Shown here: positions 32,317-49,992 of the stretch, in pieces
Layout: each line of letters opens with the position of its first letter
Position numbering within the stretch: position 1 is the first letter of the stretch
Source of the DNA: an uncultured bacterium
GTDB taxonomy: Bacteria; Patescibacteriota; Minisyncoccia; Phycocordibacterales; CAIZLB01
NCBI GenBank assembly: GCA_903821355.1
Contig: CAIJKW010000006.1
Span: forward strand, 23,898-87,897
Direction: 5' to 3'
DNA: 64,000 bases
The notes under the pieces: model-generated
Seen by the model: the letters and a program-made list of their open reading frames with translations, nothing else
Databases searched by the model: none
Told to the model about the DNA's origin: nothing
Position numbers and translations under genes: made by a program

Positions 32317-32478
32317 ATATAAATAATACCATAGGTTCAAACTCCATACCTAGGTATAAAAATAAGCCCATATATATTACATGTAAATTTGCGCTTTTTT
32401 GTAAAAAGAAGTAATATCGCAACTAGTATTCACCCCCCAACCCCCGTAAATCAGCAACCCCAATAGAAAGGAAACACA

Positions 32479-34069: not shown

Positions 34070-34159
34070 AGGTTCGAACTCGATTTAAGGTAAACAAAAA
34101 ATACCCTTGCAAAACAAGGATATTTTACGAGGCTTCGCACATGGGACGATCTTCAATTT
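34070..34159 (+). repeat. cassette-boundary repeat R1 (5' module AGGTTCGAACT…, terminator hairpin CCTTG/CAAGG+ATATTTTAC, 3' module GGCTTCGCACATGGGACGAT)
   Basis: Member of the R1-R8 family. It fills exactly the gap between genes 33632-34069 and 34161-34769. Confidence 0.7.
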
Positions 34160-34160
34160 A

Positions 34161-34769
34161 TTATTGCACATGGCTTAAACCAAAATTTTTATCCATTTCT
34201 TCAATAAAATATCTCCTTACCTCTTCATTCTGTATACACCCAGCAACATAACTCTTATCCCAAGCACGATCTATCATTTGTTTCTTTATGGCGTCATTTG
34301 AATCAAATAATTCCCCAATATCGATAAGAACTATCTCATCTTTTGTATTAAGCCCGTAGTTCTTTGTAATATTAAAACTCTTATCTATCACACCAAGACC
34401 AAGGAGCTTTTTATTAAAAAAGATAAATTTGTCGATGGTGTTTTTCATGGATAGTACATCAGACCTTGAGAATAAATCATGAATAGGCGTAACCTTGTCT
34501 TGTTCAAAATCTAGTTCATTTATAAAATGTGGATTGGCAATATAATCGGCTGGAATATTTTTTGTTTTAAGTACATTAAATGAACGTAAGGCTGTCTTCT
34601 TCATACCTCTAGAAAATTCAGGTATTTTTGTAAATGAATCCTCTCGAAACGGAAATATGGTTTTTAATATAACCCAGTATGATTTTATAGGTGAGTGGAA
34701 CCTCTTAAGAACGCGTCCATTATTCAAATCATACACGCTATATTGCCAACCTTCACCTATTTTTTTCAT
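34161..34769 (-). CDS. hypothetical protein, possibly kinase-like fold
   Basis: The N-terminus GEGWQYSVYDLNNGRVLKRF resembles a Gly-rich loop and a β3 Lys. …LIDIGELF… is DFG-like. The assignment is weak. Confidence 0.4.
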   Translation of the reverse strand: MKKIGEGWQYSVYDLNNGRVLKRFHSPIKSYWVILKTIFPFREDSFTKIPEFSRGMKKTALRSFNVLKTKNIPADYIANPHFINELDFEQDKVTPIHDLFSRSDVLSMKNTIDKFIFFNKKLLGLGVIDKSFNITKNYGLNTKDEIVLIDIGELFDSNDAIKKQMIDRAWDKSYVAGCIQNEEVRRYFIEEMDKNFGLSHVQ

Positions 34770-34902
34770 ATAAAAATTGTATCACAAGTTTAAACTTTTA
34801 TATAACAACAAACCAGCCACCAGAGGTCTTTGTAGACATGGTGGCTTGGGGTTGATGTTGTTTGATGTTATTGCGTCGCTGACGACAGTGGATTTTGAAA
34901 GC

Positions 34903-35256
34903 TCATGGGTCAAGCCATCTCTTACCTTCTCTGGTGTGTGGGTTGATATACCCAACACCAAAGATGTGGATAGGGTCGGGACAGCCGTGCATAAACTCGT
35001 TGAAACTCCTCATCCGCCTTCGCTGTCTAGACCGATTTGCCTGTCCCTTATCTTGAGTAAACAGAAGACAGCCTTCATACAACTCGTAGGAGAAAAGTTT
35101 TTTCAATTTCAGAAGCCTAGCGAGATGAAAGGCTACCTCATTTCTTGAAAAACCAGTCTCTTCCGTGAAGTCGTCGAAACTTTTGATGTCACACCTTGTC
35201 AATTCAAGGAGTTTTTCTCGTCTATTGTGTGCTTTTGTTTGATTTTGTTCATTCAT
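34903..35256 (-). CDS. hypothetical protein (uncertain; overlaps a plus-strand ORF 34777-35148)
   Basis: ORF only. The N-terminal half looks protein-like and the C-terminal half is Arg-rich. Confidence 0.25.
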   Translation of the reverse strand: MNEQNQTKAHNRREKLLELTRCDIKSFDDFTEETGFSRNEVAFHLARLLKLKKLFSYELYEGCLLFTQDKGQANRSRQRRRMRSFNEFMHGCPDPIHIFGVGYINPHTREGKRWLDP

Positions 35257-35472
35257 TTGTTGCCTCCTCTCTGGTCTGTGTGTAAAGTAAGTCGTATATT
35301 AAAACACCGAGCAATACCTTAGTGGTGTCTAATAGCAGATTTTTCACGTCAGTTTGTTCTATTGGTTTTCAGTTTGTAGAGGTTTAGCTCAAAGACTTCC
35401 AAGGCAAAGAGCTGTTTTATTCATCAAAAGGATATTCTTTTATATACAGGAAGTCAATGTCATTTTTGAATT

Positions 35473-35560
35473 AGGTTCGAACTCAATTTAAGGTAAACAA
35501 AGATGCCTTTACAGAATAAGGATATTTTACTATGCTCCGAACCTGGGACGATGTTCGAAT
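35473..35560 (+). repeat. cassette-boundary repeat R2
   Basis: AGGTTCGAACTCAATTTAAGGTAAACAAA…CCTTTACAGAATAAGGATATTTTAC…GCTCCGAACCTGGGACGATGTTCGAAT. Confidence 0.7.
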
Positions 35561-35631
35561 GATTGTTTTATGTAAATGAAAACCATCCCTGTCACGAGCG
35601 GCTTTCGTGAGGGGTGGTGAAGGTGGATTAC

Positions 35632-35850
35632 TCAACAGGGATTACCCCATATGTTATATCTGATAAAGTGTTTTTCACCCTGTTGGTCTAACCACTCCAT
35701 CCAAGAGATTGATACTCTCGCAAAGCCGTTGAGTCCAATCTGTACAGTGTCACCGACGTTGAGTTTTGGGGGAGGGTCAATTTCAACCCTTGCTCCACCC
35801 ACAAACTCAACCAACCCGAAACCTAAGCGACTTACTACATGTTTTATCAT
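35632..35850 (-). CDS. hypothetical small protein
   Basis: 72-aa ORF inside cassette 2. Confidence 0.35.
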   Translation of the reverse strand: MIKHVVSRLGFGLVEFVGGARVEIDPPPKLNVGDTVQIGLNGFARVSISWMEWLDQQGEKHFIRYNIWGNPC

Positions 35851-35879
35851 AATACTTGTTGGCTGGTGTTACTGTTATT

Positions 35880-36026
35880 TCAGGACTTCATCTCTCGTGC
35901 GCTGGCGATTGCCGTCAAAGCGTTCTTGAGATATTCTTCAGCTTTTCCATAAGAGCTGTCTTTCATCGCTAGACTGGCAAGCTCTGCGAAAAGCCGTGCG
36001 ACTTTTTCGTAATCTTTCTTTTTCAT
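35880..36026 (-). CDS. hypothetical small protein (48 aa; not in the ORF track)
   Basis: ATG at 36026 to TGA: MKKKDYEKVARLFAELASLAMKDSSYGKAEEYLKNALTAIASAREMKS. Helical. Adjacent to the 72-aa ORF. Confidence 0.3.
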   Translation of the reverse strand: MKKKDYEKVARLFAELASLAMKDSSYGKAEEYLKNALTAIASAREMKS

Positions 36027-36144
36027 AATGACTTTGGTTCTGTGTTTTTAGTGGTTCAGCTCCGAGACTTCCAAATCAAAGAGCTGTTGTATTCATCAAA
36101 AGAATATTCTTTTACATACGAGAAGTCAATGTCATTTTATAATT

Positions 36145-36292
36145 AGGTTCGAACTAGATTTAAGGTAAACAAAAAATACCCTTACAGAATAAGGATATTT
36201 TACGAGGCTCCGAACTTGGGAGGTTGCTCCCTTTTTGTTCAAGAACGTAGTGATTGAATACAAATAGCAGTCCCCTTTAGGGGGTTCGAATT
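36145..36292 (+). repeat. cassette-boundary repeat R3 (full unit plus an extra CCCCT/AGGGG hairpin and GTTCGAAT motif at 36271-36291)
   Basis: AGGTTCGAACTAGATTTAAGGTAAACAAAAAATACCCTTACAGAATAAGGATATTTTACGAGGCTCCGAACTTGGGAGG…GGGGGTTCGAATTATT. Confidence 0.7.
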
Positions 36293-36299
36293 ATTACCA

Positions 36300-37280
36300 T
36301 CAACGATAAATAGTGCTTTCAGGAGGCCATTCTCCAGTTGGAATAGCTGAATTTTTAAAGTAAACCAAGTCTTCTGGTTTAATACTATCTTCAATACCAA
36401 TCATATCGGCAATGCTTTTCATTGAATAGTAGTAAACATAATAATGTCGCAACCTTTTTAATGTAGGATCTTGTGACATATTCATATCCCAAAGTTCCTT
36501 AGGTCTAGGTAAAAGAGCCTCAATGATATGGTAATCAATTGAACCATCTTCCTTCTTGTAAATAGTTATATTATTTTGGCCGAATATATCAATCATCAAT
36601 CCTGTTCTTTTTGTATATTCAATAATTTTTGAAACAATCTCTCTTACTACTATTTTATATTTTTCGTCCTTTAGCAATTCTTCAAAACTAACAAGAAAAT
36701 TATCATCAATAATACTACGAGTCTCCCTCAAGGCTTCGTCTATATTAATTTGCTTAAAAAAATCAGTATGCGTAATTAAATCAGTACTAAACTCTATTGT
36801 TGAAAATTTTTCTGGATCTCTAAGCTCCTCCGCTACAACCTGAGTCTCCGCCAACATTTCTATTTCAGTTTCAAAATAATCTGGTAATTTTTCAACAGCA
36901 TTAGCCCTTTCATTTCCCAAGAAAGATAGTAAAAATTCTTTTGTAATTGGTATTTTTATTTTAAATACTCCTGTCTTTAAAAAATGTTCTTCTCCAAAAA
37001 TATCTTTTATTTCTTTTTCATCTCTTTCCAGTTCATCTATTTGTTCTCTTTGTGCTTCATGATTTTTATTCTCAAAATCATCAGGTGAGTAATTTTCAGC
37101 CGACAACAAATTTGATATTTTTTGTCTTAAAACAGTTTGACTGACTTTTATTATTTTTCTTGTACTTCCAGGAGTTTCTAATACCACTTTGTCAGCGCCA
37201 ATTCCAACGAATTTATATCCACGTTTTTTTAACGGCTCCTGATCTAAAATTTCTTTTATTCTCTGTTTTGTCTCTTCCAT
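36300..37280 (-). CDS. hypothetical protein
   Basis: 326-aa ORF with an acidic central region. No family recognised. Confidence 0.5.
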   Translation of the reverse strand: MEETKQRIKEILDQEPLKKRGYKFVGIGADKVVLETPGSTRKIIKVSQTVLRQKISNLLSAENYSPDDFENKNHEAQREQIDELERDEKEIKDIFGEEHFLKTGVFKIKIPITKEFLLSFLGNERANAVEKLPDYFETEIEMLAETQVVAEELRDPEKFSTIEFSTDLITHTDFFKQINIDEALRETRSIIDDNFLVSFEELLKDEKYKIVVREIVSKIIEYTKRTGLMIDIFGQNNITIYKKEDGSIDYHIIEALLPRPKELWDMNMSQDPTLKRLRHYYVYYYSMKSIADMIGIEDSIKPEDLVYFKNSAIPTGEWPPESTIYR

Positions 37281-37344
37281 GCATTTATTTTAACATTTAT
37301 ATTTAGCTATACATATAGAAAAAGAATGGCAATATGTAGGCATA

Positions 37345-37407
37345 AAAATAACCCTATATTATTAGGGGTATTTTCGTCGGCTCCGCACCTGGGAGGATGT
37401 TCGAATG
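37345..37407 (+). repeat. cassette-boundary repeat R4 (terminator hairpin ACCCTATATTATTAGGGGT+ATTTTCG, then GGCTCCGCACCTGGGAGGATGTTCGAATG)
   Basis: GGCTCCGC is identical to the complement of the tRNA-Asn acceptor 3' end (49015-49022). Confidence 0.7.
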
Positions 37408-37581
37408 TTAATAAACAAGGTAGAATAAACAGACACCATCAAAACCGTGAAAATATCTATTTTTATGAGGCTTTTCACGGTTTTGATTGATTAACGTAAT
37501 GCATGGTTTCCTTACATTACTTGACTCAATGTAAGCAAAAAGGTATACTTTGCTTACATTGTTAAAAAGATGTAAACAAAC

Positions 37582-38724
37582 ATGAAATCAATACAAATTG
37601 GAGAATTAATACAACAAAAAAGTGGCTTTAAAGCATTCGTCCCCTACCCCTTTCCCCCAAAAGGTGGTTTTGAATTTAACCAAAAGACCCTAAAAAAAGT
37701 TGATGAAGCAACCCGTCTACTTGGTAAACTTGATGGAATTACAAAACTACTACCAGATGTAGATTTCTTTTTAGGTATGTACCTTAGAAAAGACGCAGCT
37801 TCATCAAGTCAAATTGAAGGAACAATGGCAACAATGATTGATGCGATTGAGGCTGAGGTAAATTCTAATGCAAGTATTCCTCCTGATGTCGATGATATTT
37901 TACATTACATCAAAGCTCTTAATTACGGTATGAAGCGAGTACAACAAGATAACTTTCCAATGTCTCTGCGTTTTATAAGAGAGCTACATAAACACTTGAT
38001 GGACAAAGCACGTTCAACGCACTTTTCAGATCCAGGCGAATTTAGAAAATCACAAAATTGGATTGGTGGCACGCGTCCAGACAATGCCCGTTTTGTTCCT
38101 CCACCAGTTGAAGAAATGAAAGTATCACTTAGTGATCTTGAAAAGTTTATGCACGGAGATGATGACAACCTTACTCTGGTTAAAGCAGCCCTAATTCATG
38201 CTCAATTTGAGACTATTCACCCGTTCTTGGATGGTAATGGTAGAACTGGTCGAATGATTATAACCTTCTATCTTTGGAAAGAGGGGTATCTTGAAAAACC
38301 TGTTTTATTTTTATCCTCATATTTCAAAAAACATCAAAAAGTTTATTACGAGAAACTTCTTAACTATCACTTTGGTGGTGTTGAAGAATGGGTAGAATTC
38401 TTTCTTGATGGTGTTGCTGAAATTGCGAATGAAGCAATAGATATTGTTGGTAAGATTACAAAACTACGCGACAAAGATATGTTAAAAATTCAAACACTGG
38501 GAAAACGTGCCGCGATGAGTGCTGGTATTGTATTACCTAAATTATACGAACAACCTATTGTTAATATTGCTTCTATTCAAAAAATGACTAATTTTTCAAG
38601 AGTAGGATCTCAAGATATTATCAATCGTTTCATCGAAATGGATATTTTAGTTCCGAAAGATAAAGATAAGAAATATGGACAATCATACATATACAAGAAA
38701 TATGTTGATATTTTTTCTGAGTAG
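37582..38724 (+). CDS. Fic family protein (AMPylator/phosphocholine transferase-type Fido domain)
   Basis: Canonical Fic motif HPFLDGNGRTGRMII. Confidence 0.85.
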   Translation: MKSIQIGELIQQKSGFKAFVPYPFPPKGGFEFNQKTLKKVDEATRLLGKLDGITKLLPDVDFFLGMYLRKDAASSSQIEGTMATMIDAIEAEVNSNASIPPDVDDILHYIKALNYGMKRVQQDNFPMSLRFIRELHKHLMDKARSTHFSDPGEFRKSQNWIGGTRPDNARFVPPPVEEMKVSLSDLEKFMHGDDDNLTLVKAALIHAQFETIHPFLDGNGRTGRMIITFYLWKEGYLEKPVLFLSSYFKKHQKVYYEKLLNYHFGGVEEWVEFFLDGVAEIANEAIDIVGKITKLRDKDMLKIQTLGKRAAMSAGIVLPKLYEQPIVNIASIQKMTNFSRVGSQDIINRFIEMDILVPKDKDKKYGQSYIYKKYVDIFSE

Positions 38725-38752
38725 AGGAGCTTTTAGTTAAATATCTTGTCCT

Positions 38753-38785
38753 AACTGGCTTCGAACTTGGGACGATGTTCGAATA
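38753..38785 (+). repeat. cassette-boundary repeat R5 (AACTGGCTTCGAACTTGGGACGATGTTCGAATA)
   Basis: AACTGGCT(C/T)CG matches 49009-49019 at the tRNA-Asn 3' end / recombinase stop region. Confidence 0.7.
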
Positions 38786-38829
38786 ATTTTTATTAACACA
38801 TTTCTATAATATGATATAATCTTCGAATA

Positions 38830-39342
38830 ATGAGGAAAAACGATAATAATTATGCTTTTATCGATAGTCAAAACTTAAATCTAGGTATAAAAGACTTGGG
38901 TTGGAAATTAGACTTCTATAAATTTAGAAGGTATCTTACTGAAAAGTATTCTGTTACTAAAGCATATATGTTTATTGGATATGTTCCTGGAAATGAAGCT
39001 CTATATACGGCACTACAGAATATGGGTTATATTTGCATATTTAAACCGACTCTTGAGTTAAAGGATGGAAGAGTCAAAGGTAATGTTGATGCTGAATTAG
39101 TACTTCATACAATGATTCAATTAAATAATTTCAATAAAGCGATTGTAGTATCAGGTGACGGAGATTTTTATTGTCTAATTGAGCATTTAATAAAAGAAAA
39201 CAAACTAGAAATCTTACTTGTTCCAGATGAAAGAAGGTATTCTGCGCTACTTAAGAGGCTTAGTTCACCAGATAAAAATATCTTTGAATTTCTTAATAAA
39301 AAACGAGGTCAACTTGAGTATATAAATGAAAAGGCTCTGTAA
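38830..39342 (+). CDS. NYN-domain (LabA/PIN-like) putative ribonuclease
   Basis: N-terminal YAFIDSQNL and …AIVVSGDGDF… are typical acidic residues of the NYN/PIN fold. Confidence 0.7.
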   Translation: MRKNDNNYAFIDSQNLNLGIKDLGWKLDFYKFRRYLTEKYSVTKAYMFIGYVPGNEALYTALQNMGYICIFKPTLELKDGRVKGNVDAELVLHTMIQLNNFNKAIVVSGDGDFYCLIEHLIKENKLEILLVPDERRYSALLKRLSSPDKNIFEFLNKKRGQLEYINEKAL

Positions 39343-39415
39343 GGGACGGGACCCCTACAGAACCTTTTCGTCGTGATGTGTATATTATATCAAGAGTTGT
39401 CTGTTAGTCAAGTAG

Positions 39416-39479
39416 AAAAATAACCCCATATTCATAGGGCTATTTTCACTGGCTCCCTATCTTGGACGAGTTCAGAACC
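39416..39479 (+). repeat. cassette-boundary repeat R6 (hairpin ACCCCATATTCATAGGG+TATTTTC; ACTGGCTCCCTATCTTGGACGAGTTCAGAAC)
   Basis: ACTGGCTCC is identical to 49010-49018. Confidence 0.7.
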
Positions 39480-39635
39480 ATTAATTGGCAGAACATTAAA
39501 ATTAAATTAGGTAGATTGAGTTTTGTATAAAAATTTAACACCATCCGAAGATGGTGTCATTACCCCGAAGAATTGAACTTCGGTAACGGTTTGTAACCGA
39601 GTGGAGAATACCACTATTTAGACAATTCCCTGCCG

Positions 39636-40265
39636 TTACGGACCTAGAGGAAAAGCGTATGGGCTATCGCACGGTGGCTGATAGGTCAAACAACTGTAAC
39701 TCAACGCTAAAGCAAAAAGAAGCAGAAACGAATACTCGACGGGATGTCGGTATATCTCCGTAATTGTATCAAGAAGTTTTTTCAGTGTCGGTTGAACGAA
39801 CTGCCGTCTCTCAACTGGTGAATAGAACATTCTCCAAGTCGATGAGGCAATAAGTTCTCCTTTTTCTGTTTTTACTTCAATCAGCCAATCACAGTATGCT
39901 CTACTTCTTTTTACTACACGGTGCATTAAGGTGTATGAGTATTGATAGCACATACCGAGATGAAGTGGTTGCTTCAACTCGACAGAACTATAACCCAAGG
40001 CAATTATCTCTGTGTCCTCGGCGAAGCTAAGGATTTTGTGAATGCTTGGCTTTGTCAGAGCAAGAACCAAGTCTCCACAACAAGTCAGACCTTTGAGGTT
40101 AGACCTGTAACGCCAAGCAGTGAATGGGTTGATGTGAACTTTGTTCCAGTCTCCAGTTGCAATTGCAAAAAGGATAAAACGGAAAAAAGACACAACCATC
40201 AACCTAGACTGCCAGCAAAATCCTACGGGGAGATTACAGATGTCAGGTATCTTTTTAAAGTGCAT
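39636..40265 (-). CDS. MaoC-like (hotdog-fold) dehydratase domain protein; GC-rich
   Basis: TGDWNKVHINPFTAWRY matches the GDxNPxHxD…A hotdog signature. About 48% GC. The exact start is uncertain. Confidence 0.5.
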   Translation of the reverse strand: MHFKKIPDICNLPVGFCWQSRLMVVSFFRFILFAIATGDWNKVHINPFTAWRYRSNLKGLTCCGDLVLALTKPSIHKILSFAEDTEIIALGYSSVELKQPLHLGMCYQYSYTLMHRVVKRSRAYCDWLIEVKTEKGELIASSTWRMFYSPVERRQFVQPTLKKLLDTITEIYRHPVEYSFLLLFALALSYSCLTYQPPCDSPYAFPLGP

Positions 40266-40286
40266 TTTCTTAGGGGATTCGGGATG

Positions 40287-40784
40287 CTAAGCCATTGCGT
40301 CAAGGTCGACGTCGTCAGATTTATTTGCGATGTGGCCAAAGACTTCTTCTGTGCCTCCTTTGAGAAGTTGCTGAAGATTTAGCCCACGAATTTGGGCATA
40401 ATGTTCAGCTTGCTCCAAAAACAGAGGTTCTTCCCATCGTTCCGCGGCAGAATATCCAGCCCACCGCATGGGAAGCTCTCCAGCGACAGTCTTTCGTGTG
40501 AACAAATCGCCTCTGTCAGTCCCAACCCTTACCAATTCTGGTGTCTCAAACAAAGCGGAGTACCACTCGTCTTTGACACGAAGACTGATTAGGTCGTCAC
40601 GGCTACGCATGAAGTAGATTTCAATAACCTCATCACCAATACGGACTTCCCCGTGGTTGGTATTAAAGTCAATGCAATCGTAGGTAACTCGTTTTCCGTG
40701 CAGGACTTCAAGGGCTGTGCGCACCATTTCCATTATGGCACAAACATTAGCAGTCAATACAGGCCGTTTCTTTTTATTAAACAT
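40287..40784 (-). CDS. hypothetical protein; GC-rich, co-cassette with the MaoC-like gene
   Basis: 165-aa ORF. No family recognised. Confidence 0.45.
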   Translation of the reverse strand: MFNKKKRPVLTANVCAIMEMVRTALEVLHGKRVTYDCIDFNTNHGEVRIGDEVIEIYFMRSRDDLISLRVKDEWYSALFETPELVRVGTDRGDLFTRKTVAGELPMRWAGYSAAERWEEPLFLEQAEHYAQIRGLNLQQLLKGGTEEVFGHIANKSDDVDLDAMA

Positions 40785-40900
40785 GATGTTTTTCTCCTAG
40801 TTCAAGGTTCAGTTTCGTTGTTGAAGAGATTGCTCTCTTGGAACCACAGTTCAGTAGCTCTGTAAATATTATACATTAGATATAATATAAAGTCAAATTT

Positions 40901-40926
40901 GCTCCTATCTTGGACGAGTTCAGAAC
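40901..40926 (+). repeat. cassette-boundary repeat R7 (GCTCCTATCTTGGACGAGTTCAGAAC)
   Basis: Shares the 17-mer TTGGACGAGTTCAGAAC with R6 and R8. Confidence 0.65.
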
Positions 40927-41059
40927 TTTGGATTGGGTAAATATTAGCAAAGAATTGCGTTGTTTTAATTTTGTATAAACAGAAAACCCACCAACTCGCG
41001 ACGGAGCCAGTGGGTCTTCCGTGTTAAGTTGATGGGTGAATTACGAACGATGAACTGAA

Positions 41060-41686
41060 TCATCGTGTTCGTAAACGATACGCCAACAATGGTGGCATGA
41101 TAATAATCGGTGGCGTAGCCATATACACAGCGTAGGTGGCAATTTCCCAGTTCCATGTTTCCACGGCAAAGAGATTGCATATACCACCAAGACTCCATAA
41201 TGTCCACGCTAACAAGTCTTCTTCCTCGGGTCTTTTCCATGATTTAACAATCGTTGGTATGGCGCCGTTTGCATCGACAGCCAAGCCTCCAAATAGTGTA
41301 ATCAGTGGAAGAAAGCGAGCCCAAGCAGGAAGAACGTGTACTGATTCAATAATCTTGAAAGTTATCCAAGGGACAAAAAGAATCAGACCTATCGCGAGAC
41401 AAATCTTATCTATCTTTGGCCAAGGCTCTTTTTCACGATTTTTGAACAAAGCTACACCCAACACGAATGCTGGACAGATAGCGTAACTGACAGCTACCCA
41501 GACACTAGCATTGGCGCCTGATGTCTTGTAGCTAAGGGCAACTGCCGTTCCGACGACAAGCCAGATAATCCAACTTGTCTTACTTGGCACCGTTGTGTTT
41601 TTGAAGATGGCGATAATGTATGGGAGAAATCCGAGAGTTGCGAACACGCCCGCAATCTTACCCATAAGTTCATGGTCAATTTGCAC
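41060..41686 (-). CDS. hypothetical integral membrane protein (about 6 TM)
   Basis: 208-aa hydrophobic ORF. Confidence 0.5.
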   Translation of the reverse strand: MQIDHELMGKIAGVFATLGFLPYIIAIFKNTTVPSKTSWIIWLVVGTAVALSYKTSGANASVWVAVSYAICPAFVLGVALFKNREKEPWPKIDKICLAIGLILFVPWITFKIIESVHVLPAWARFLPLITLFGGLAVDANGAIPTIVKSWKRPEEEDLLAWTLWSLGGICNLFAVETWNWEIATYAVYMATPPIIIMPPLLAYRLRTR

Positions 41687-41778
41687 GATATTAAGTCCTT
41701 TCTTGTTGGTTGTTTGAATTCGAAATCAATGTGCGTATGCACGAGATAATAACACGTTTTATTAATACCGTCAAATCA

Positions 41779-41803
41779 GCGCCTATTGGACGAGTTCAGA
41801 ACT
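41779..41803 (+). repeat. cassette-boundary repeat R8 (GCGCCTATTGGACGAGTTCAGAAC)
   Basis: Shares TTGGACGAGTTCAGAAC with R6 and R7. Confidence 0.65.
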
Positions 41804-41808
41804 GACTA

Positions 41809-42240
41809 TCATCTATGTTTTTTACCAATAGCGACAATGTTGAATATGTTATTTACCACATACCCAAAAATTCTACCAGCACCCGAATAATCAACTTCAA
41901 GCATTTCTATATCCTCTTGTATTCCATCAAACAACACAGAATAATTACCAGAATTACTGATTGGTTTACATGCAATACATGAAATATGTTGATGCCTAAA
42001 GTGTTTAGTTGGTATTTTTGAGATTTTCTTTAGTTCTTTTGTTAACTTTTTTGCTTCAATATTATCTAGTTTATATATCTCACATTGATTATTATTATAA
42101 ATCTCAAAACTAAAAACCACCCTCCTATTTTCATAGTCTTTAAGAGCGTCGGAAATGGCCACTGTTGGAGAAATGATATCCCGTTCCGCAGTTAGGTTTG
42201 CTATACTACTAGGAAGTTTTTGACTTGAGTTTTCCTGCAT
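41809..42240 (-). CDS. hypothetical protein; candidate toxin partner of the upstream Panacea-domain antitoxin
   Basis: 143 aa. The start overlaps the end of the Panacea gene by 32 bp. No family recognised. The call is contextual. Confidence 0.45.
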   Translation of the reverse strand: MQENSSQKLPSSIANLTAERDIISPTVAISDALKDYENRRVVFSFEIYNNNQCEIYKLDNIEAKKLTKELKKISKIPTKHFRHQHISCIACKPISNSGNYSVLFDGIQEDIEMLEVDYSGAGRIFGYVVNNIFNIVAIGKKHR

Positions 42241-42691
42241 AAAACTTCTTTGCTGTAGTTAAATTTATTATATTATTTGATGACTCTGATGCAGATGTAT
42301 CCTTTCTTGCTTCCTGCCAAGGAAGTTCAGAATGTGAAAGCGCCTCAAGATATTCTGCATTATATTTTCCATAAATAGCCCAGATACTTTCAAGTAATTC
42401 CACTTGTTTTTTAGAAAAACTGAAAGAAACTTTGGTGGTATCCATTTGTATTGGATTGAACTCAAACACCTTAAACCTTCTATATACAGCAGGAATTGCA
42501 GGCCCGTGAATCCATGCTTCAATCCTTTCAGAGAATAATTTTTCACCATTAACAACCAGAGACCAAACTTGCGCATAATAAAGTAGTTTCTGTAACTTTT
42601 TGTTGGTTATTGTTTCTTTTTCTTTATTTGCCTTATCAATAAAATACTCTGCGACAGTCAATGCACTTATTTTTTTAGTGACTGAACTCAT
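42209..42691 (-). CDS. Panacea-domain (DUF4065, SocA/PanA-like) putative antitoxin
   Basis: …KKLQKLLYYAQVWSLVVNGEKLFSERIEAWIHGPAIPAVYRRF… matches the conserved DUF4065 core. Confidence 0.6.
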   Translation of the reverse strand: MSSVTKKISALTVAEYFIDKANKEKETITNKKLQKLLYYAQVWSLVVNGEKLFSERIEAWIHGPAIPAVYRRFKVFEFNPIQMDTTKVSFSFSKKQVELLESIWAIYGKYNAEYLEALSHSELPWQEARKDTSASESSNNIINLTTAKKFYAGKLKSKTS

Positions 42692-42774
42692 GACCTTAGT
42701 ATACTCTTCATAATATTTTTAATCAAGTTAAAATAGTTGATAAGTATTGTATACTAAAGTAAAGTAAAGATACC

Positions 42775-43446
42775 ATGAATAAGAAAGTAAACATTAAAGA
42801 CCCTTATGTTAATTCTAAAGGACTAAAAAAATTATGGAATTATTTTCTGTATTTAGTAGAAAAACCCGACTTTCTTGAAAAAATAGATGGGATACGAACC
42901 AAATATAACATAGATATAAACAATAAATTAGAGGATGACGGCAACCTATCTAATCAAGATTTATTTAAGGACATAATCGCATTGGCTGAAGAATATGAGC
43001 TTGATTCAAGTACTTGGTTGACGTCGATTGCCCCATTGGTGTTGTGGAATATATTAGCAGAACCAGCGTGTACAGATATTTGTATAACCTCTGATAATAT
43101 AAATGACCACGATTTAAGCGAAAATGAGAGACGACACTATCCCGTATCAATTAGAATTAGCCCTTACGCAAGCAAACGTGACATCTTAGACTACATCAAT
43201 AGATTTTATAAATACATCTCCCAAACCCAAGAAAATTACAAGGACGAATCAGTGAAAATTGGTCGCCTTAAGACAAGGAAAGATGCTATAAAAAAGCGTA
43301 ATAGCTTTATATATGAACATAAACATCTGCCAACAAAAGAGATTATGCAACTCGTCGGCAAAGAGTTTGGTCTTAATTCTATTATTGACTGTGCTTATAT
43401 AGGCAAAATAATAGCACTAGAAAACAAAAAAAGAAAAGAAGTGTGA
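42775..43446 (+). CDS. hypothetical protein
   Basis: 223-aa ORF. No family recognised. Confidence 0.45.
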   Translation: MNKKVNIKDPYVNSKGLKKLWNYFLYLVEKPDFLEKIDGIRTKYNIDINNKLEDDGNLSNQDLFKDIIALAEEYELDSSTWLTSIAPLVLWNILAEPACTDICITSDNINDHDLSENERRHYPVSIRISPYASKRDILDYINRFYKYISQTQENYKDESVKIGRLKTRKDAIKKRNSFIYEHKHLPTKEIMQLVGKEFGLNSIIDCAYIGKIIALENKKRKEV

Positions 43447-43674
43447 TACAGATTTTTTCCGTATTACAGAAAATACTTATACTGTATTTTGCATCAATAG
43501 TATTCTGAAGACATCCTTCGGGATATTTTATGCAGGATACTGTTTCAACAAAAAACTTCAAAGTAAACGAGCTACCAGCTAACGACAAACGAAAATTGGT
43601 CGATGCTTTAACTTGGTTAATACAAGAAGATAAAAAGCAAAATCCTGCACTTTATCAGATTAAAAAAGAACAAA

Positions 43675-44793
43675 ATGATAGACACGATATGTCTCTTGAT
43701 ACCAAAAGACAAGATGAATTACCAATCAGGAGTAACCAGCTGGGAGCTTTACTCACAAACGGACCAATACAAGAAATACGTTCGAAATCCAAATAAGGCT
43801 GAAAAAGAAACTGGTAAATATTTCCCTAGATTAACAAGCTATGAACGAAAATTTTCTCAAGAAGCAAACATCCGAATGGAGTTTTCTGTCCCTAAGTTAA
43901 TATATCTAAACAATCTAAATGAGCTTGAAGATAAAGACTTTACAGAGGTAATTGAGATACTCCAAGAAAGACTTAAGACCATGGGAGTAATCGTTACAAA
44001 AGAAGTTCTTGAAAATGCATCAGTAAGTTCGGTCCACTTTTCAAAGAACATATTACTTCAAGACGGATACACTTCTAGCCACTTAATTTCAGAAATGAAT
44101 AAAGTTAATTTACAAAAAAGATTTGATTTTGCAAAGACTAGATTTATGAATGACGGACAAAGCCTCTATGCTCACACCACAGCCCACCAGCTTGTTATAT
44201 ACGACAAGATAGCAGATTTAAACAAAGACAAGAAGCGGGCAATAGATAAGGACCAAACTTTATATCAACAGAATCTATTTACAGAAATAACCAAAGAAGA
44301 TAAATTCCAAGAAATAATACGATTTGAGATTAGGCTGGCTAAAAAGCCTAAAATGAATACGGTCATTGAAGATTTAGGCTATCAAAAGAACCCTACATTC
44401 AAAGACGTATTTAGTACTGAGATGAGTCAAAAAGTTGTTACTAGCTACTGGAAGACACTTATCAAAGAAAGAGGACTTGGAATATTCTCGATAACAATAA
44501 GACCAAAGGATATATTGCAGACTCTATTTCTAGCAGACTTAAAACTAAAGCCAAAACAAGCTGTCTATCTTCTAGGATTATTTACCTTAGCCAAGGACGA
44601 GAATGGTATGAGGCAACTAAGAGAGATTGTCTCAAAGAGGTCTACTGAAGAAACTTGGTATCGAATAGCCAGAGATTTACGACGGTCCAGTGAATTAATA
44701 ACTCAAAACAAGCTACGGGACTGGGTTACTCAAATAGATACAGCGTTAGAAGATTATAAACCATATAAAATTAAAGATTATGAAAACAAATAA
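43675..44793 (+). CDS. hypothetical protein, possibly a replication-initiation-type protein of a mobile element
   Basis: 372 aa. Only weak resemblance to phage/plasmid Rep proteins. Sits in the element between the cassette array and xis. Confidence 0.4.
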   Translation: MIDTICLLIPKDKMNYQSGVTSWELYSQTDQYKKYVRNPNKAEKETGKYFPRLTSYERKFSQEANIRMEFSVPKLIYLNNLNELEDKDFTEVIEILQERLKTMGVIVTKEVLENASVSSVHFSKNILLQDGYTSSHLISEMNKVNLQKRFDFAKTRFMNDGQSLYAHTTAHQLVIYDKIADLNKDKKRAIDKDQTLYQQNLFTEITKEDKFQEIIRFEIRLAKKPKMNTVIEDLGYQKNPTFKDVFSTEMSQKVVTSYWKTLIKERGLGIFSITIRPKDILQTLFLADLKLKPKQAVYLLGLFTLAKDENGMRQLREIVSKRSTEETWYRIARDLRRSSELITQNKLRDWVTQIDTALEDYKPYKIKDYENK

Positions 44794-44977
44794 GAAAAAC
44801 CTAAGTGCAATTGATAAATTTTCAAATAATATGAATCTACTTTTTGCAGATTATTATAATAAAAAACTTTCAGAAAGCATAAAAAGAGGGCTAGAATTAA
44901 GGAAAAAAAGATTGTCCACATCAAAAGTTGATATGTAAAGAATTGTAAAGTATACTTATTAAGTTAATATAATAAAA

Positions 44978-45157
44978 ATGAATAAAGAAAAAGAATTTTA
45001 CAAAGCAGAAGATTTAGCGAAGTCGTTAGAAGTAAACATTATGACGATTTATCGTTATATAAAATCAGGTCGCCTAAAGGCGTACAAGATAGGTCGTGAG
45101 TTTCGTATCGATAAAAAAGAATTCAATGTCTTTCTTAACAGCGTAAAAACAATATAA
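44978..45157 (+). CDS. excisionase/Xis-family helix-turn-helix DNA-binding protein (59 aa; not in the ORF track)
   Basis: MNKEKEFYKAEDLAKSLEVNIMTIYRYIKSGRLKAYKIGREFRIDKKEF… is a typical Xis/MerR-type HTH_17 motif. Immediately upstream of the R-M and recombinase genes. Confidence 0.55.
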   Translation: MNKEKEFYKAEDLAKSLEVNIMTIYRYIKSGRLKAYKIGREFRIDKKEFNVFLNSVKTI

Positions 45158-45162
45158 AAAAA

Positions 45163-46284
45163 ATGGAAGAATGCCTAGTTCATGATTTAATCATGCAAAC
45201 CAAAGAAATTCAGGATGATTTAAAAAGTATATTACTTATTGACCATAATAATAGTTTTAAACTAATACATGAAGACCAATACATAAACGGAATCACAGCT
45301 GATTTTACACTTGTATCAAATAACAAAATTAGAGCGATTGTTGAATGCAAAGCTGGAAATATAGGTATTACTGACTATGTTCGTGGTATAGGGCAAGTCA
45401 TGCAATATGAGTATTTCTATGAAGAAAAAATTACCCCTAAGAGTATTGAGTATGATACTATTTTTAACTCCGTATTGTTGTTTCCCTCGTCTGTTATTAA
45501 AAATAATATATTCAATGTAGGTAGGTTCAAATATCCAAAAAGTACCGTAATTGTTGAATTGAACGATTCAAGTAAGGTACTTAGAAGAATTAATGACTCA
45601 GAACTTGATAAACTAAAGGAAGCGACCGAACAAAACTTGGTAACGATAAGCCAATACTACATAAGAGACAATCGACTATACGAATTATATATTCTTTTAA
45701 ATTATCTAACATTTCTAAAATTCAAGGGCGTTAACGAGGTAAATAGAAATGATTCAGAGGAGCTTTTTTTGAATCATATAGGTACGCAAAATAATGGAAA
45801 TTGGAGAAATGCGTTCATTAGTTTATCCTCTCTTGGTTTTATAGATAGTTATAATATCCCAACCTCTTCAGGAGTTAAGTATGCAAATCTAACTTTTGAA
45901 AAATTTGCTGTGGAAATATATAAGTCATACATAAAACCATATTTTGAAGTTATATTACAATTATTCAATACTGGAGAACAAGTGGACATTAGTAATCAAG
46001 AAATCTGCGACAGAATAAAACAAAGATACCTTGGTAGAGACGTCCTGTTTTTGACAGAGTCTGAAGGTAGATATATTTCTAGCTGGTTAAATATTCTAAG
46101 GGATGATTATGGATGTTTGGAATTTGCCCCAAGAAAAAAGGAGAGAAGAATGACTTATGATTTATTGAATTATAATGAGGAAGGTCTGGAAGCGGCAATT
46201 AAAAGTAAGTCTATCGCTTACGAATATATAAATAAATATTTTACACTATTAAATAACCAAAAAGCATATGTATACAATTTTTGA
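45163..46284 (+). CDS. putative type II restriction endonuclease (by context)
   Basis: 373-aa ORF. Its end overlaps the start of the C5-methyltransferase gene by 17 bp. No conserved family recognised. Confidence 0.45.
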   Translation: MEECLVHDLIMQTKEIQDDLKSILLIDHNNSFKLIHEDQYINGITADFTLVSNNKIRAIVECKAGNIGITDYVRGIGQVMQYEYFYEEKITPKSIEYDTIFNSVLLFPSSVIKNNIFNVGRFKYPKSTVIVELNDSSKVLRRINDSELDKLKEATEQNLVTISQYYIRDNRLYELYILLNYLTFLKFKGVNEVNRNDSEELFLNHIGTQNNGNWRNAFISLSSLGFIDSYNIPTSSGVKYANLTFEKFAVEIYKSYIKPYFEVILQLFNTGEQVDISNQEICDRIKQRYLGRDVLFLTESEGRYISSWLNILRDDYGCLEFAPRKKERRMTYDLLNYNEEGLEAAIKSKSIAYEYINKYFTLLNNQKAYVYNF

Positions 46285-47527
46285 AACTTTTGTCGGTGTG
46301 GGTGGGTCTCATATTGGATTTAAAAATAAAGGGTTTAAAACCATCTACGTGAATGATAACAACGAAGATTGTTTAGCAACGCTTATATTAAACAATCCTG
46401 AATTACAAGGCACAGCATATATAGATAACAGAAGCATTCTTGATGTTTCCACGTCTGATTTATTGAAAAAAATTAAGATGAAGAAAAAATCTCTAGATGT
46501 ATGTTTTGGTGGAATTGTATGTAAAGGTTTTAGTTTGGCTGGAGAAAGGTCCCCCAATGATGAAAGAAGTTATTTTTATCATAAACAAATTGAATTAGTT
46601 TCTGAACTGATGCCAAAAATTAGCATAATTGAAAACGTAAAAGGTATTCTAAATGCAAAAGTTTTATCTGCTAAAACGCCAAAGAAGATAAAAGATGAGG
46701 TTGACTTTATATGGCAAGAGCTTGAAAACTATAAGGGCAAAAAGGCGGATTTGAGGAAGAAAGACAAAATCACAAAATCATTTGAAAGTGAGGGTGAAGT
46801 TTTAAGGCAAAATAAAGAAAAAATGTTAGTTAGACTTGAAAAAGAAGGCTATTTGGTATCAGTACTAGATGATATACATGATATTTATCAAAAATTAGGC
46901 TACAAAGTCAAATATCAGGTACTAAACACAGCATGGTATGGAGCATCTACAAAAAGAGAGCGTGTTATTATCGTTGCAGTAAGAAACGATATAAAAGAAG
47001 AGTTCTTGTTTCCAGTACCTAAATTTTTAGATAAAACGATAACCACCAAACTAACTGGTTTCAACATAGACGGAGTAAAATTTAAAAAGCCTATTTCCAT
47101 TAATGAGGCATTGTCTAAAATAAATTATAAAAAAATAGACCCTGATAATATCGCAATGCAACATTCACCAAAAACGGTTAGTCGTTTTAAGTGTATTCCT
47201 GAAGGAAGAAATATATCTGACATGATGGATGGCGTACCTGATGACCTTAAAATTAGTAAATTCTATTCAAGAGGAAACACAATGAGATTAAATGGAAATT
47301 CACTAAGTCCAACTCTTGTACCTGGACACAGCAATTTTCCTATTCACCCAAAAGAAGATAGGAGTATTACCGTCAGAGAAGCGGCTTGTATAACTGGCTT
47401 CCCTATTGACTACAAGTTCGTCGGTAGCCACACTAAACGTTGTGAGCATGTTGGTAACGCTGTCCCTCCGCCTCTTGCTGAAGCTATAGCTCAAAGTTGT
47501 ATTGATTTGCTAAATAAAATTAAATGA
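46268..47527 (+). CDS. DNA (cytosine-5)-methyltransferase
   Basis: Motif I FVGVGGSHIGF, motif IV GGIVCKGFSLAG (catalytic Cys) and motif VI IENVKGIL. Confidence 0.85.
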   Translation: MYTIFETFVGVGGSHIGFKNKGFKTIYVNDNNEDCLATLILNNPELQGTAYIDNRSILDVSTSDLLKKIKMKKKSLDVCFGGIVCKGFSLAGERSPNDERSYFYHKQIELVSELMPKISIIENVKGILNAKVLSAKTPKKIKDEVDFIWQELENYKGKKADLRKKDKITKSFESEGEVLRQNKEKMLVRLEKEGYLVSVLDDIHDIYQKLGYKVKYQVLNTAWYGASTKRERVIIVAVRNDIKEEFLFPVPKFLDKTITTKLTGFNIDGVKFKKPISINEALSKINYKKIDPDNIAMQHSPKTVSRFKCIPEGRNISDMMDGVPDDLKISKFYSRGNTMRLNGNSLSPTLVPGHSNFPIHPKEDRSITVREAACITGFPIDYKFVGSHTKRCEHVGNAVPPPLAEAIAQSCIDLLNKIK

Positions 47528-49026
47528 AAGCAATAAACGTCTCAAGAGTATCAACGGAAGAACAAAAAGAAGCTGGTAATTCCCTACCTGCTCAAATTGA
47601 GCGTATAAATAAATATTGCAAAAACAAATCATTTGAAATTATTAAATCTTTTAGCTTCGATGAAAGTGCCTATAAAGATAAGCGAGATGAATTTGATAAA
47701 TTTTTAGACTACGTTGAAGAGTTAGTTAAAAAAGAGAAGATAGCAGTTTGTTTTGACAAAGTAGACAGGCTTTCAAGAAGTGTTTTCGACAAGAGAGTTG
47801 CGAGACTTTATGAACTGGCCATGGCTGGAAAAATTGAACTTCATTTTGTTTCTGATAATCAGGTAATAAAAGGTGAGCTTTCTGCAACTGAAAAAGGTGG
47901 GTTTGGTATGAGTCTCGTAATGGCTAGTTACTATTCAAATGCTATTAGTGATAATGTCAAAAGAGCTTTTGAGCAAAAAAGAAGAAGTGGAGAATGGACT
48001 GGGCCAGTGTGTTTAGGTTATTTAAATATAAGCCTAAACGAGGAAAAAAGACTACGCAAAGACATAATAATTGACCCAGAGCGTGGCCACCTTATTCTAA
48101 AAATGTTTGAGCTTTATTCGACAGGATTGTACTCTTTAGAAACCTTGAGATTAAAGATGACAGAACTTGGATTAAGAACTCTCAAGGGAAACATCTTAAC
48201 AAAAAGCGGAGTTGATAACATAATAAGAAACAGCTTTTATTGTGGAATAGCTATTTCGAGAAAATATGGTGCATACCCACACAACTACCCTCGTCTAATA
48301 ACTAAGGATTTATTTGATAGATGTAAGGAAATTCAAATTGGACGATTCAATAACATACATAAGGAAGTCTCAAAAGACTTCATCTTTAAAGGTTTACTAA
48401 AATGCCAGAATTGCGGTTGTGCAATAACAGCTGAGCAACACGAGGGCAAGCCCATATACTATTCCTGTACAAATGGTAAACATATATGCAAGAGATTATA
48501 TATCAATGAGAAAGACCTTCTGAAGCCCATATACGAGGTCCTAGAGCGTTTTGAGAGCATTACAGAGGAGGTGGCTAATGATTTAGTAAGTGAGCTAAGA
48601 AAGAACACTGAATCAGAAATTGTGTATCATAAAGCACAAATTAATCGTATAAGAATTAATTACGATAACCTTTTAGCAAAACAAGAAAGACTGCTTGAAG
48701 CTTTTTTGGACCAGAGTATTACTAAGAGCATCTATGACAAGAAACACGAAGAGCAACAAGACCAAATACAGACCTTAGAAATTGAAATGTCTGAACACAA
48801 TAAAGCAGACTATGATTACCAAACTACCGTTGCCACAGTACTTTCTGTAGCAAGAAGAGCAAAGAGCATATTTGAAAATAGTTCTGAAGTTGCAGGAAAA
48901 AGAGCATTTTTGAGCATGATACTTCAGAACCCTGTCATAAACGAAAAAAAGCTAGTGTTTACAATAGCTTCTCCGTTCAATCTAGTATTAGAATTAGCTG
49001 ACCGTCCAAACTGGCTCCGCGGGTAG
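47524..49026 (+). CDS. large serine recombinase (resolvase/invertase N-domain + recombinase domain + zinc ribbon)
   Basis: Catalytic region INVSRVSTEEQ…DRLSRS. Cys cluster CQNCGC…CTNGKHIC. Coiled-coil C-terminus. Its last 15 nt overlap the 3' end of tRNA-Asn on the opposite strand. Confidence 0.85.
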   Translation: MKAINVSRVSTEEQKEAGNSLPAQIERINKYCKNKSFEIIKSFSFDESAYKDKRDEFDKFLDYVEELVKKEKIAVCFDKVDRLSRSVFDKRVARLYELAMAGKIELHFVSDNQVIKGELSATEKGGFGMSLVMASYYSNAISDNVKRAFEQKRRSGEWTGPVCLGYLNISLNEEKRLRKDIIIDPERGHLILKMFELYSTGLYSLETLRLKMTELGLRTLKGNILTKSGVDNIIRNSFYCGIAISRKYGAYPHNYPRLITKDLFDRCKEIQIGRFNNIHKEVSKDFIFKGLLKCQNCGCAITAEQHEGKPIYYSCTNGKHICKRLYINEKDLLKPIYEVLERFESITEEVANDLVSELRKNTESEIVYHKAQINRIRINYDNLLAKQERLLEAFLDQSITKSIYDKKHEEQQDQIQTLEIEMSEHNKADYDYQTTVATVLSVARRAKSIFENSSEVAGKRAFLSMILQNPVINEKKLVFTIASPFNLVLELADRPNWLRG

Positions 49027-49086
49027 GATTCGAACCTACGACCAATTCGTTAACAGCGAACTGCTCTACCACTGAGCTACCGCGGA
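49012..49086 (-). tRNA. tRNA-Asn (anticodon GUU), CCA encoded
   Basis: Manual fold: acceptor UCCGCGG/CCGCGGA; D-arm GCUC-AGUGGU-AGAGC; anticodon stem GUUCG/CGAAU with loop CUGUUAA; T-arm GGUUCGAAUCC; discriminator G + CCA. Confidence 0.85.
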
Positions 49087-49914: not shown

Positions 49915-49992
49915 GCAAGAACTCTATCAAAGCGACATGAAGTTTCTATAAAAAAATTCTAAAGAATTGCCAAAGTTTTCTTAAAGAATTAA

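Follow-up and report, generated by a model that had tools for sequence, protein, structure and literature searches.

Tandem repeats with attP-type right arms, large serine recombinases and tRNA-Asn in a Patescibacteria gene array

The 64-kb window (the whole stretch of DNA analyzed here, from an uncultured member of the Patescibacteria) contains a run of short gene cassettes separated by related repeats and bounded on the right by a large serine recombinase (LSR) gene that ends inside tRNA-Asn. The segment from ~32 or 34 kb to 49 kb is probably a tandem accretion island at the 3' end of tRNA-Asn, in which LSR elements and recombinase-less mini-derivatives would be joined through a common GC|TC core. 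Each repeat is described by its left arm, core and right arm (P'). The eight copies listed in a preliminary description of the locus, R1–R8, were recovered at their places and in one orientation by pattern and profile searches and are limited to 34.1–41.8 kb; eight was not the full set, as a truncated ninth relic, R0, lies at ~32325–32375 and suggests that the array formerly reached further left. The right arms are of two types: in R1–R5 the 27-nt core is GCTCCGAACnTGGGAsGATGTTCGAAT (type P'c), and R6–R8 have in common, as described before, the variant TTGGACGAGTTCAGAAC (type P'v1). The repeats and the elements to their right are as follows.

32325–32375, plus strand: R0, truncated left-arm relic with 5' box TAGGTTCAAACTC and half a hairpin, without core or right arm
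34069–34165, plus strand: R1, 5' box AGGTTCGAAC and terminator hairpin; core GCTTCG at 34132–34137; degenerate P'c arm; profile score 16 bits
35471–35564, plus strand: R2, 5' box and weak hairpin; core GCTCCG at 35534–35539; canonical P'c arm; 42 bits
36144–36295, plus strand: R3, 5' box and hairpin; core at 36207–36212; P'c arm interrupted, resuming with GTTCGAAT at 36284
37344–37414, plus strand: R4, hairpin-type left arm; core GCTCCG at 37380–37385; P'c arm; 37 bits
38740–38792, plus strand: R5, left arm a relic of an LSR-A gene; core GCTTCG at 38758–38763; P'c arm; 41 bits
39416–39531, plus strand: R6, hairpin-type left arm; core GCTCCC at 39452–39457; P'v1 arm and 76-nt tail
40862–40979, plus strand: R7, core GCTCC at 40901–40905; P'v1 arm and tail; core-to-GGAC spacing of 7 instead of 8
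41779–41803, plus strand: R8, read as the decayed attL of the intact element; core GCGCC; GGAC spacing shortened; TTGGACGAGTTCAGAAC kept; tail lost
41809–49026, plus strand: intact LSR-A-type element, ~7.2 kb, from R8 to tRNA-Asn
47524–49026, plus strand: LSR gene (LSR-A family), 500 aa, with its stop inside the tRNA-Asn 3' end
48944–49019, plus strand: putative attR, with arm P_A in the LSR 3' coding end, GTCC at 9–12 nt from the centre and core GCTCCG at 49014–49019
49012–49086, minus strand: tRNA-Asn(gtt), intact, the only tRNA in the window (Rfam, 74.5 bits)

In pattern searches, the 3' module of R2, R4 and R5, the R6–R8 variant and the 5' module that had been assigned to R1–R3, and was found there, gave three matches each, with ~0 in shuffled sequences. 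A profile built from other genomes matched R1–R5 only within the 64 kb, and the remaining ~56 kb was free of the motif. The 3' module was indeed present in all eight copies, but that of R3 is split by an insertion of ~57 bp (36225–36283), with two small hairpins, between GGGAGG and the resumed arm. Among the hairpins reported for R1–R4 and R6, those of R1, R3, R4 and R6 folded as terminator-like structures, while that of R2 was only weak. Folding z-scores of the repeat units ranged from −2.6 to +0.8 and were accounted for by the terminator hairpin. The 27-nt motif contains a 5–7-bp inverted repeat, and the whole unit of 5' box, hairpin and 3' box (~100 bp) is an imperfect inverted repeat around the terminator.

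Parts of R4–R6 match the end of the tRNA gene, as had been noticed: GGCTCCGC in R4 and A(A)CTGGCTyC in R5 and R6 correspond to 49009–49020. The identity between repeats and tRNA is restricted to a 6–9-nt core and a displaced TTCGAA box, and the earlier reading of the repeats as degenerate copies of the tRNA 3' end was not sustained. Decayed tRNA 3' halves and pseudo-tRNAs were rejected with it: only GCTCCG(C) is common to both, and the TTCGAA box lies 5 bp away from its place in the tRNA. No tRNA was called in the repeats by ARAGORN or Rfam, and no relevant Rfam family was found there at E<5.

The recombinase assignment was confirmed by the Resolvase (PF00239), Recombinase (PF07508) and Zn_ribbon_recom (PF13408) domains, with the N-terminal motif VSRVSTEEQ visible. 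The end of the LSR-A gene mirrors the right arm in the arrangement GTCC-N8-TC-N8-GGAC, and this symmetry would place the crossover at TC, the last two bases of the tRNA acceptor stem (49016–49017 in the window attR). The G and C to the left of TC are the complements of C74 and of the discriminator base. A minus-strand terminator hairpin, AGCTA..TAGCT, lies within attR at 48950–48969, and a hairpin with an opposite-strand T-run is found inside the 3' coding end of the genes of both LSR families described below (window 48944–48972; LSR2 ends in L038 and L058, where L numbers denote stretches from other genomes and metagenomes). The LSR-embedded hairpin would terminate tRNA-Asn after integration.

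Circular elements and two recombinase families

In free circles of 7.4–9.4 kb, the right arm of attP is a copy of the repeat. The 9436-bp contigs L055 and L056, which come from two samples, both have ends that overlap by 30 nt, and one is an exact circular permutation of the other. Their backbone equals window 42.7–49.0 kb, with homologues of the 223-aa and 372-aa proteins, an HTH_17 protein, a restriction-modification module and the LSR, and their LSR open reading frame (ORF) continues through P_A, the core and P'v1, that is, through attP. L057 is a similar LSR-A-type circle with a 43-nt end overlap. L058 and L059 represent a ~7.8-kb circular element of a second family, LSR2, in two permutations; its LSR2 gene ends in ..GGTTCGAACC..hairpin..CTACTAT GC TC CGCACCTGGGACGATGTTCGG, corresponding to P2, core and P'c. 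Because the circles carry both arms, P'c and P'v1 are element-borne attP right arms; judged from these sequences, P'v1 is assigned to the LSR family of the window (LSR-A) and P'c to LSR2. Consistently, LSR-A-type elements begin on the left with a P'v1 copy, namely R8 in the window and the copies at 2979 in L019 and ~114 in L050. All repeats had previously been tied to the recombinase of the window, which holds for R6–R8 through the LSR-A circles but not for R1–R5, with their LSR2-type arm. Circular forms were seen for full elements (L055/L056 and L058/L059), not for the window's own element.

These circles also bear on the idea that the motif is a host landing pad, either a secondary attB or a regulatory or terminator module, that is targeted by LSR elements within arrays of other origin. 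Such a pad would agree with conservation on the right side only, with the position of the motif and its 5–7-bp inverted repeat at the 3' end of most cassette genes, and with LSR genes sometimes inserted beside it. The free LSR2 circles, however, carry the motif directly after the LSR gene and hence as part of the element, the spacing of TTCGAA is of attP type rather than attB type (see below), and the motif is absent from the other ~56 kb of the window and matches nothing in Rfam, which together make a landing pad very improbable.

The LSR-A and LSR2 families are 22% identical. LSR ORFs stop within the repeat core or run on through it in L048 (69.5% identity to the window LSR), L024 (29%), L050, L108 and L099, and the LSR2 gene in L038 ends in tRNA-Asn. 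The LSR genes end exactly at the common GC|TC core, where they are joined to the repeat or, as in the window, to tRNA-Asn. The ORFs extend across the recombination point, so that the C-terminal tail of a homologue shows which sequence is its partner; tails were read for the 120 best LSR-A and the 120 best LSR2 homologues. With proportions that are approximate and judged by eye (the automated tally was only partly parsed), the majority of the 240 tails stop in the tRNA T-stem or read through the T-arm (..DSNL..), the tRNA-stopped tails ending after two residues with a TAG from the GTAGG T-stem of tRNA-Asn. A minority continue as RTWDDVR.. (P'c), PLVDKFRTLNW.SIK.ELQFSG.. (P'v1) or AWRD.LRT.. (a third arm type, P'v2). 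As the LSR ORF spans its own attP, the C-terminus of the protein varies with the state of the element (window; L048, L024, L055, L058). An LSR integrated at the tRNA ends in ..NWLRG and a stop, and one on a circle or beside another unit in ..NWLRTWDDVR.. or in the conserved ~35-aa tail that corresponds to P'v1.

An unbiased logo of the sites, anchored on positions 12–25 only, showed conservation beginning abruptly at K-G-C-T-C-C-G and extending ~33 nt rightward. Conserved LSR half-sites were rejected for the left arms, which lack a GTCC signal at 9–12 nt and stay below 0.5 bit. The P' arms have GG(G)A at 9–11 and TTC(A)GAA within 16–23 from the centre. TTCGAA itself lies at 17–22 in P'c, at 16–23 in P'v1 and P'v2 and at 12–17 in tRNA-Asn, whose acceptor and T-arm form a B'-type half-site with GGA at 9–11. 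In serine integrases, the motif bound by the zinc-ribbon domain (ZD) sits closer to the centre in attB than in attP, by 5 bp (Rutherford et al. 2013, PMC3783163). The 5-bp shift of TTCGAA between repeat and tRNA matches this attP/attB rule for the right arms only, the left arms being weakly symmetric or not symmetric at all.

Homology between genomes breaks at the same place. L109 matches window 48715–49019 with 95.7% identity over 305 bp and then has P'c in place of tRNA-Asn, L012 matches L038/L048 (94%, 237 bp) from 2–3 nt before the core, and ~15 ends of inter-genome high-scoring segment pairs lie no more than 3 nt from a core. One left-arm family (GGTTCGAAC box and terminator hairpin) is joined to P'c, P'v1, P'v2 and three or more other arms; in L017, L032 and L040 it directly adjoins tRNA-Asn. 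Putative attP x attB recombination at the proposed sites is thus backed indirectly, by the core breakpoints and the circular forms. A second recurrent left arm with GTTCAC repeats (TTCACAACGTTCACAAGTTCACGA followed directly by GC) stands beside the repeat and beside tRNA-Asn (L011, L013, L020, L046, L010).

Arrays in other genomes and metagenomes

Patescibacteria (the candidate phyla radiation, CPR) have tiny genomes, and their mobile elements are little known. The degenerate 27-nt search pattern GCTYCGMACNTGGGASGATSTTCRAWT, for which we estimated ~0.02 chance matches in the collection, was found in 49 stretches of species-representative genomes, nearly all annotated as Patescibacteria and from many species, and in 93 metagenome stretches (groundwater, lakes, peat, wastewater). 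The 27-nt core is almost invariant across these 49 genome loci and 93 metagenome stretches. With the profile, 134 copies were detected in the 49 genome loci and 142 in 80 metagenome loci, with arrays of up to nine copies in 8 kb (L043). Mixed orientation was observed at none of the 49 genome loci and none of the 35 multi-copy metagenome loci. Across species, the unit of 5' box, hairpin and 3' box is 80–98% identical. Searches of viral contigs (IMG/VR) with both repeat types gave no match, and a viral origin of the repeats was rejected on this result.

tRNA-Asn was present in 12 of the 49 genome loci and 7 of the 80 metagenome loci, and was the commonest tRNA in both (13 of 20 and 7 of 8 tRNA genes, respectively). 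In all 20 cases, counting the window, it lies downstream of the array on the opposite strand. Homology searches with LSR queries identified the array-adjacent recombinases at other loci as LSRs. The profile search that the preliminary description had suggested therefore returned co-oriented arrays linked to tRNA-Asn and to LSRs rather than a generic repetitive extragenic palindrome (REP). A genome-wide REP, miniature inverted-repeat transposable element (MITE) or terminator repeat, unrelated to site-specific recombination, would be in keeping with a ~100-bp imperfect inverted repeat around a terminator and with the 80–98% identity between species. It can be given hardly any credence against the strict clustering, the lack of mixed orientation (49 genome and 80 metagenome loci), the link to tRNA-Asn in fixed geometry (20/20), the LSR ORFs that run into the repeat and the confinement of the window copies to 34–42 kb.

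Most array units measure 0.3–1.5 kb and hold one or two genes without a recombinase, the conserved arm typically standing at the gene 3' end. Among 95 units, the median length was 864 bp; 53 contained one gene and 25 contained two. Genes run with the tRNA in 106 cases and against it in 33, so that a unit, bounded 5' by the left arm, typically reads from gene to P' arm. A strong sigma-70 promoter abutted the core in 10.6% of cases compared to 1.3% of controls, an eight-fold excess, with R7 and R8 as examples; in R7, the left arm contains a minus-strand consensus promoter (TTGACT-17-TATAAT) that abuts the core. The motif itself was rejected as a promoter, its −35/−10 spacings being unfit and the downstream genes mostly convergent (judged partly by eye). 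The cargo is highly variable, as 526 ORFs gave only 45 small homology clusters. The 71 Pfam families found in 139 proteins (among them NYN, Fic, NUDIX, HIT, HAD, metal resistance, Msr and peptidases) represent a general accessory pool, instead of the mainly addiction- and defence-related cargo proposed earlier.

One-gene cassettes with a conserved site at each gene 3' end are also what an integron, or a cluster of attC sites lacking an integrase (CALIN), would present, with the tyrosine integrase encoded elsewhere. No tyrosine recombinase is found among the annotated array-adjacent genes, and Pfam searches of the window ORFs at 32.5–49 kb gave the serine recombinase as the only recombinase and no IntI-type enzyme. 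Attempts to read the repeats as attC-like folds were abandoned, as only the terminator hairpin folds, folding being otherwise weak, and the sites are conserved in sequence rather than structure. Some cassettes have their own promoters, and the junctions are common to LSR genes and tRNA. The earlier statement that a tyrosine IntI and attC-like folding are lacking thus stands, and the probability of an integron or CALIN is negligible.

In L023, two co-oriented tRNA-Asn genes (1265–1339 and 4941–5013) bracket part of the array, from which some units may carry their own tRNA-Asn copy. Contigs often end within a few bases of a repeat copy (L017, L030, L037, L038, L052, L098), so the arrays are probably under-assembled in metagenome-assembled genomes.

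Accretion at tRNA-Asn and its precedents

The mechanism that we propose starts from the 7–9-kb circles, in which attP has the P' repeat as its right arm and, as its left arm, the 3' coding end of the LSR gene of the circle itself. On integration, the P' arm would pair with the acceptor and T-arm of tRNA-Asn as the B' half-site, the crossover would fall in the last two acceptor-stem bases, and the tRNA would regain its discriminator base, the start of CCA and a terminator from the incoming left arm. With the tRNA side rebuilt each time, further units could be added, each leaving a junction of a variable left arm, core and P'. In the window, the unit from R8 to the tRNA would be the latest, an LSR-A element with a decayed attL. 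R6 and R7 would be the P'v1 left ends, with remnants of the LSR tail, of earlier LSR-A-type units that now hold one or two genes, and R1–R5 the P'c junctions of LSR2-type units. The 76-nt tail of R6 translates to LPILDEFRTINWQNIKIKLGRLSFV and a stop, the post-crossover end of an LSR ORF. The previous interpretation as an LSR-linked array of att sites formed by tandem accretion at tRNA-Asn is retained in this mechanism, with attP right arms in place of the supposed tRNA copies. The small units would be either mini-derivatives mobilized in trans or deletion remnants.

Taken to its end, the second option holds that only full-size LSR elements integrate and that all small units are remnants of internal deletion, without cassette mobility or trans capture. 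LSR 3' relics do abut the repeat in R5, whose left arm keeps a 13-nt relic of the 3' end of an LSR-A gene (GTCCTAACTGGC, the same sequence as at the LSR end of L048), as well as in L035, L023, L109, L007 and L015; tandem full-size elements occur in L048/L038 and L050, and no cassette circles were found. Yet only 5 of 136 scored P'c left arms were detectably LSR-derived, conservation and homology stop within 3 nt of the core and not at random deletion ends, and one left arm occurs with five or more types of right arm. Furthermore, the LSR-A relics of three unrelated genomes begin at the same place, aa ~393–399 (L035 6230–6532, L023 3538–3855 and L109 3147–3451). The common start suggests a propagated mini-element with a left arm of ~300 bp, which fits these relics better than decay in each genome independently. 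We therefore regard remnants as an unlikely source for all of the small units.

Trans-mobilization in its broadest form would be a phylum-wide, integron-like capture system, in which the LSRs of small integrative episomes insert, excise and shuffle kilobase-sized, recombinase-less cassettes, often equipped with promoters and with a one-sided attP arm, in trans at the tRNA-Asn 3' end, through half-site recognition that leaves the left arms free save for repair of the tRNA end. We advance this reading tentatively and consider it somewhat doubtful, in comparison with the accretion island itself.

Several points weigh against accretion as set out here. Canonical LSRs recombine only attP x attB, whereas repeated insertion would need a hybrid, attR-like target with an arbitrary left arm. 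Left arms below 0.5 bit in the logo are unusual for LSR sites, which are bound by dimers, and hidden Markov models of real LSR2 ends fail to detect the left arm of 5' box and hairpin despite its similar architecture. No circular recombinase-less cassette was found, no gradient of repeat score or decay with distance from the tRNA was seen, and the 64-kb window holds no LSR2 gene though R1–R5 are of the LSR2 arm type. Intact LSRs also occur away from the tRNA, in L048, L050 and L024. In the window, R7 and R8 are decayed, so the array may be frozen: the GCGCC core and shortened spacer of R8 and the spacer base lost from R7 mean that the window element probably cannot excise precisely, and this intact-looking element is probably locked in place.

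Known systems resemble the island in part. In SCCmec, composite staphylococcal cassette chromosome (SCC) elements and the Enterococcus cassette chromosome, Ccr LSRs insert circular cassettes at the 3' end of rlmH, and the site is regenerated. The SCC composites form tandems that include recombinase-less pseudo-SCC, with paired CcrA/CcrB or CcrC in elements of 20–60 kb. LSR insertion at a conserved gene 3' end, tandem composites and recombinase-less units are features common to SCC and the present arrays, which differ in having a tRNA instead of a protein-gene target, kilobase units instead of 20–60 kb, and one LSR per element instead of paired Ccr.

Closer still are the Dehalococcoides ssrA islands, which lie in tandem downstream of one small-RNA gene, are flanked by 20-bp direct repeats and encode the CcrB-like LSR DsiB (McMurdie et al. 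2011, PMC3146451). Some of them have no integration module and were proposed to be mobilizable in cis by accretion (PMC3146451). Tandem units at one RNA gene, core direct repeats, an LSR and units without a recombinase are found in both systems. They differ in target (tRNA-Asn here, tmRNA in Dehalococcoides), in unit size (median 0.86 kb compared to ~7 kb of cargo plus an integration module per island) and in the repeat (an attP-type arm of 27–35 nt compared to a 20-bp copy of the target). Moreover, one core here serves two or more LSR families and three or more right-arm families, the LSR ORF spans attP, and many Patescibacteria species are involved. With these islands and composite SCC as close precedents, the view that the organization is undescribed could not be upheld.

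With phage serine integrases (LI/A118, Bxb1, phiC31; PMC3783163), the sites have in common a central dinucleotide, imperfect inverted half-sites and the 5-bp ZD offset; unlike in those canonical systems, only the right half-sites are conserved and hybrid junctions are apparently reused. Streptococcal cis-mobilizable and integrative and conjugative elements (CIME and ICE) also place recombinase-less, att-bearing derivatives in tandem with autonomous elements by accretion and mobilization (a concept referred to in PMC3146451 and PMC5704250), but they differ in using tyrosine integrases and identical att cores, and their elements are large and their arrays not long. Integrons and the present arrays are alike in their co-oriented, mostly single-gene arrays with a site at the gene 3' end, a fixed anchor and variable cargo. 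They differ in that integrons rely on a tyrosine IntI and folded single-stranded attC sites, whereas here a serine recombinase and double-stranded, sequence-conserved sites are found, some cassettes bring promoters and the recombinase is itself on a mobile unit.

The locus agrees with a tandem LSR island in that tRNA-Asn is intact, core direct repeats stand between units of which some lack a recombinase, and full elements form circles. What is new is the combination of the phylum and the breadth of occurrence, the tRNA-Asn anchor, the kilobase cassettes, interchangeable arms on one core common to two LSR families, the attP-spanning LSR ORFs and the circles; the organization is not categorically new. 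In the literature searched, no paper was found that links Patescibacteria to serine-recombinase islands. The locus looks like a main entry point for accessory genes in many Patescibacteria species, and its near-invariant 27-nt site can be used as a search handle in metagenomes. Natural LSR/attP/attB triplets with apparent tolerance of the left arm are relevant to serine-integrase engineering. If the small units are indeed mobilized in trans, the integron principle would have been invented a second time, through an independent mechanism.

Cassettes, intact element and flanks of the window

Seven cassettes lie between R1 and R8.

34161–35256, minus strand: cassette 1, ORFs at 34161–34769 (202 aa) and 34903–35256 (117 aa)
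35632–36030, minus strand: cassette 2, 72-aa ORF at 35632–35850 and a possible small upstream ORF, seen by eye only and listed by no tool
36300–37280, minus strand: cassette 3, 326-aa ORF with no family match
37582–38724, plus strand: cassette 4, Fic/DOC protein (Fic_N and Fic)
38830–39342, plus strand: cassette 5, NYN-domain nuclease
39636–40784, minus strand: cassette 6, ORFs of 209 and 165 aa, high GC, no Pfam or PHROG match
41060–41686, minus strand: cassette 7, 208-aa hydrophobic protein (cluster 3)

Domain searches confirmed the Fic, NYN and Panacea assignments, while the MaoC hotdog pair proposed for cassette 6 found no support in Pfam or PHROG. The elevated GC content noted for several cassettes was borne out at 35–36 kb and 40–42 kb. 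The 140-nt right end of cassette 1 (35362–35501) is 86% identical to that of cassette 2. NYN cassettes adjoin repeats in five genomes with differing neighbours (window, L003, L013, L021, L032), bounded by repeats on both sides in L003, L013 and L021 and by a repeat and tRNA-Asn in L032. Homologues of cassette 7 lie in or beside arrays at five other loci. An exact look-up of the Fic protein for strain variants returned no record.

The intact element encodes, from left to right, a 143-aa protein and a Panacea antitoxin (both minus strand), the 223-aa and 372-aa proteins, an excisionase-like HTH_17 protein (44978–45157), a 373-aa protein beside a C5 cytosine methylase (46268–47527), and the LSR. 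The 223-, 372- and 373-aa proteins matched nothing in Pfam or PHROG, and the 373-aa protein and the methylase are read as a restriction-modification unit from position only. The backbone is common to L019, L050 and the circles L055–L057, each with a different restriction-modification module. Modules of this type occupy 45163–47527 in the window and the same position in L050, L055, L057 and L060, where they comprise an N6_N4 methyltransferase with ResIII, an MmeI-like enzyme, Tsp45I with a methyltransferase, or two methyltransferases. LSR-A-type elements look like restriction-modification shuttles.

To the left of the array, a gene for a 69-aa membrane protein (31443–31652) has 81–83% DNA identity to counterparts in L005 and L045. 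It lies left of the arrays in L005, L045 and L036 and may mark a conserved left flank of the island. To the right of tRNA-Asn, at 49351–50547 and 51570–51950, there are a pilin-like gene (N-terminal GFTLIEVLVVIGILAILA) and, farther along, tandem direct repeats of 75–90 nt.

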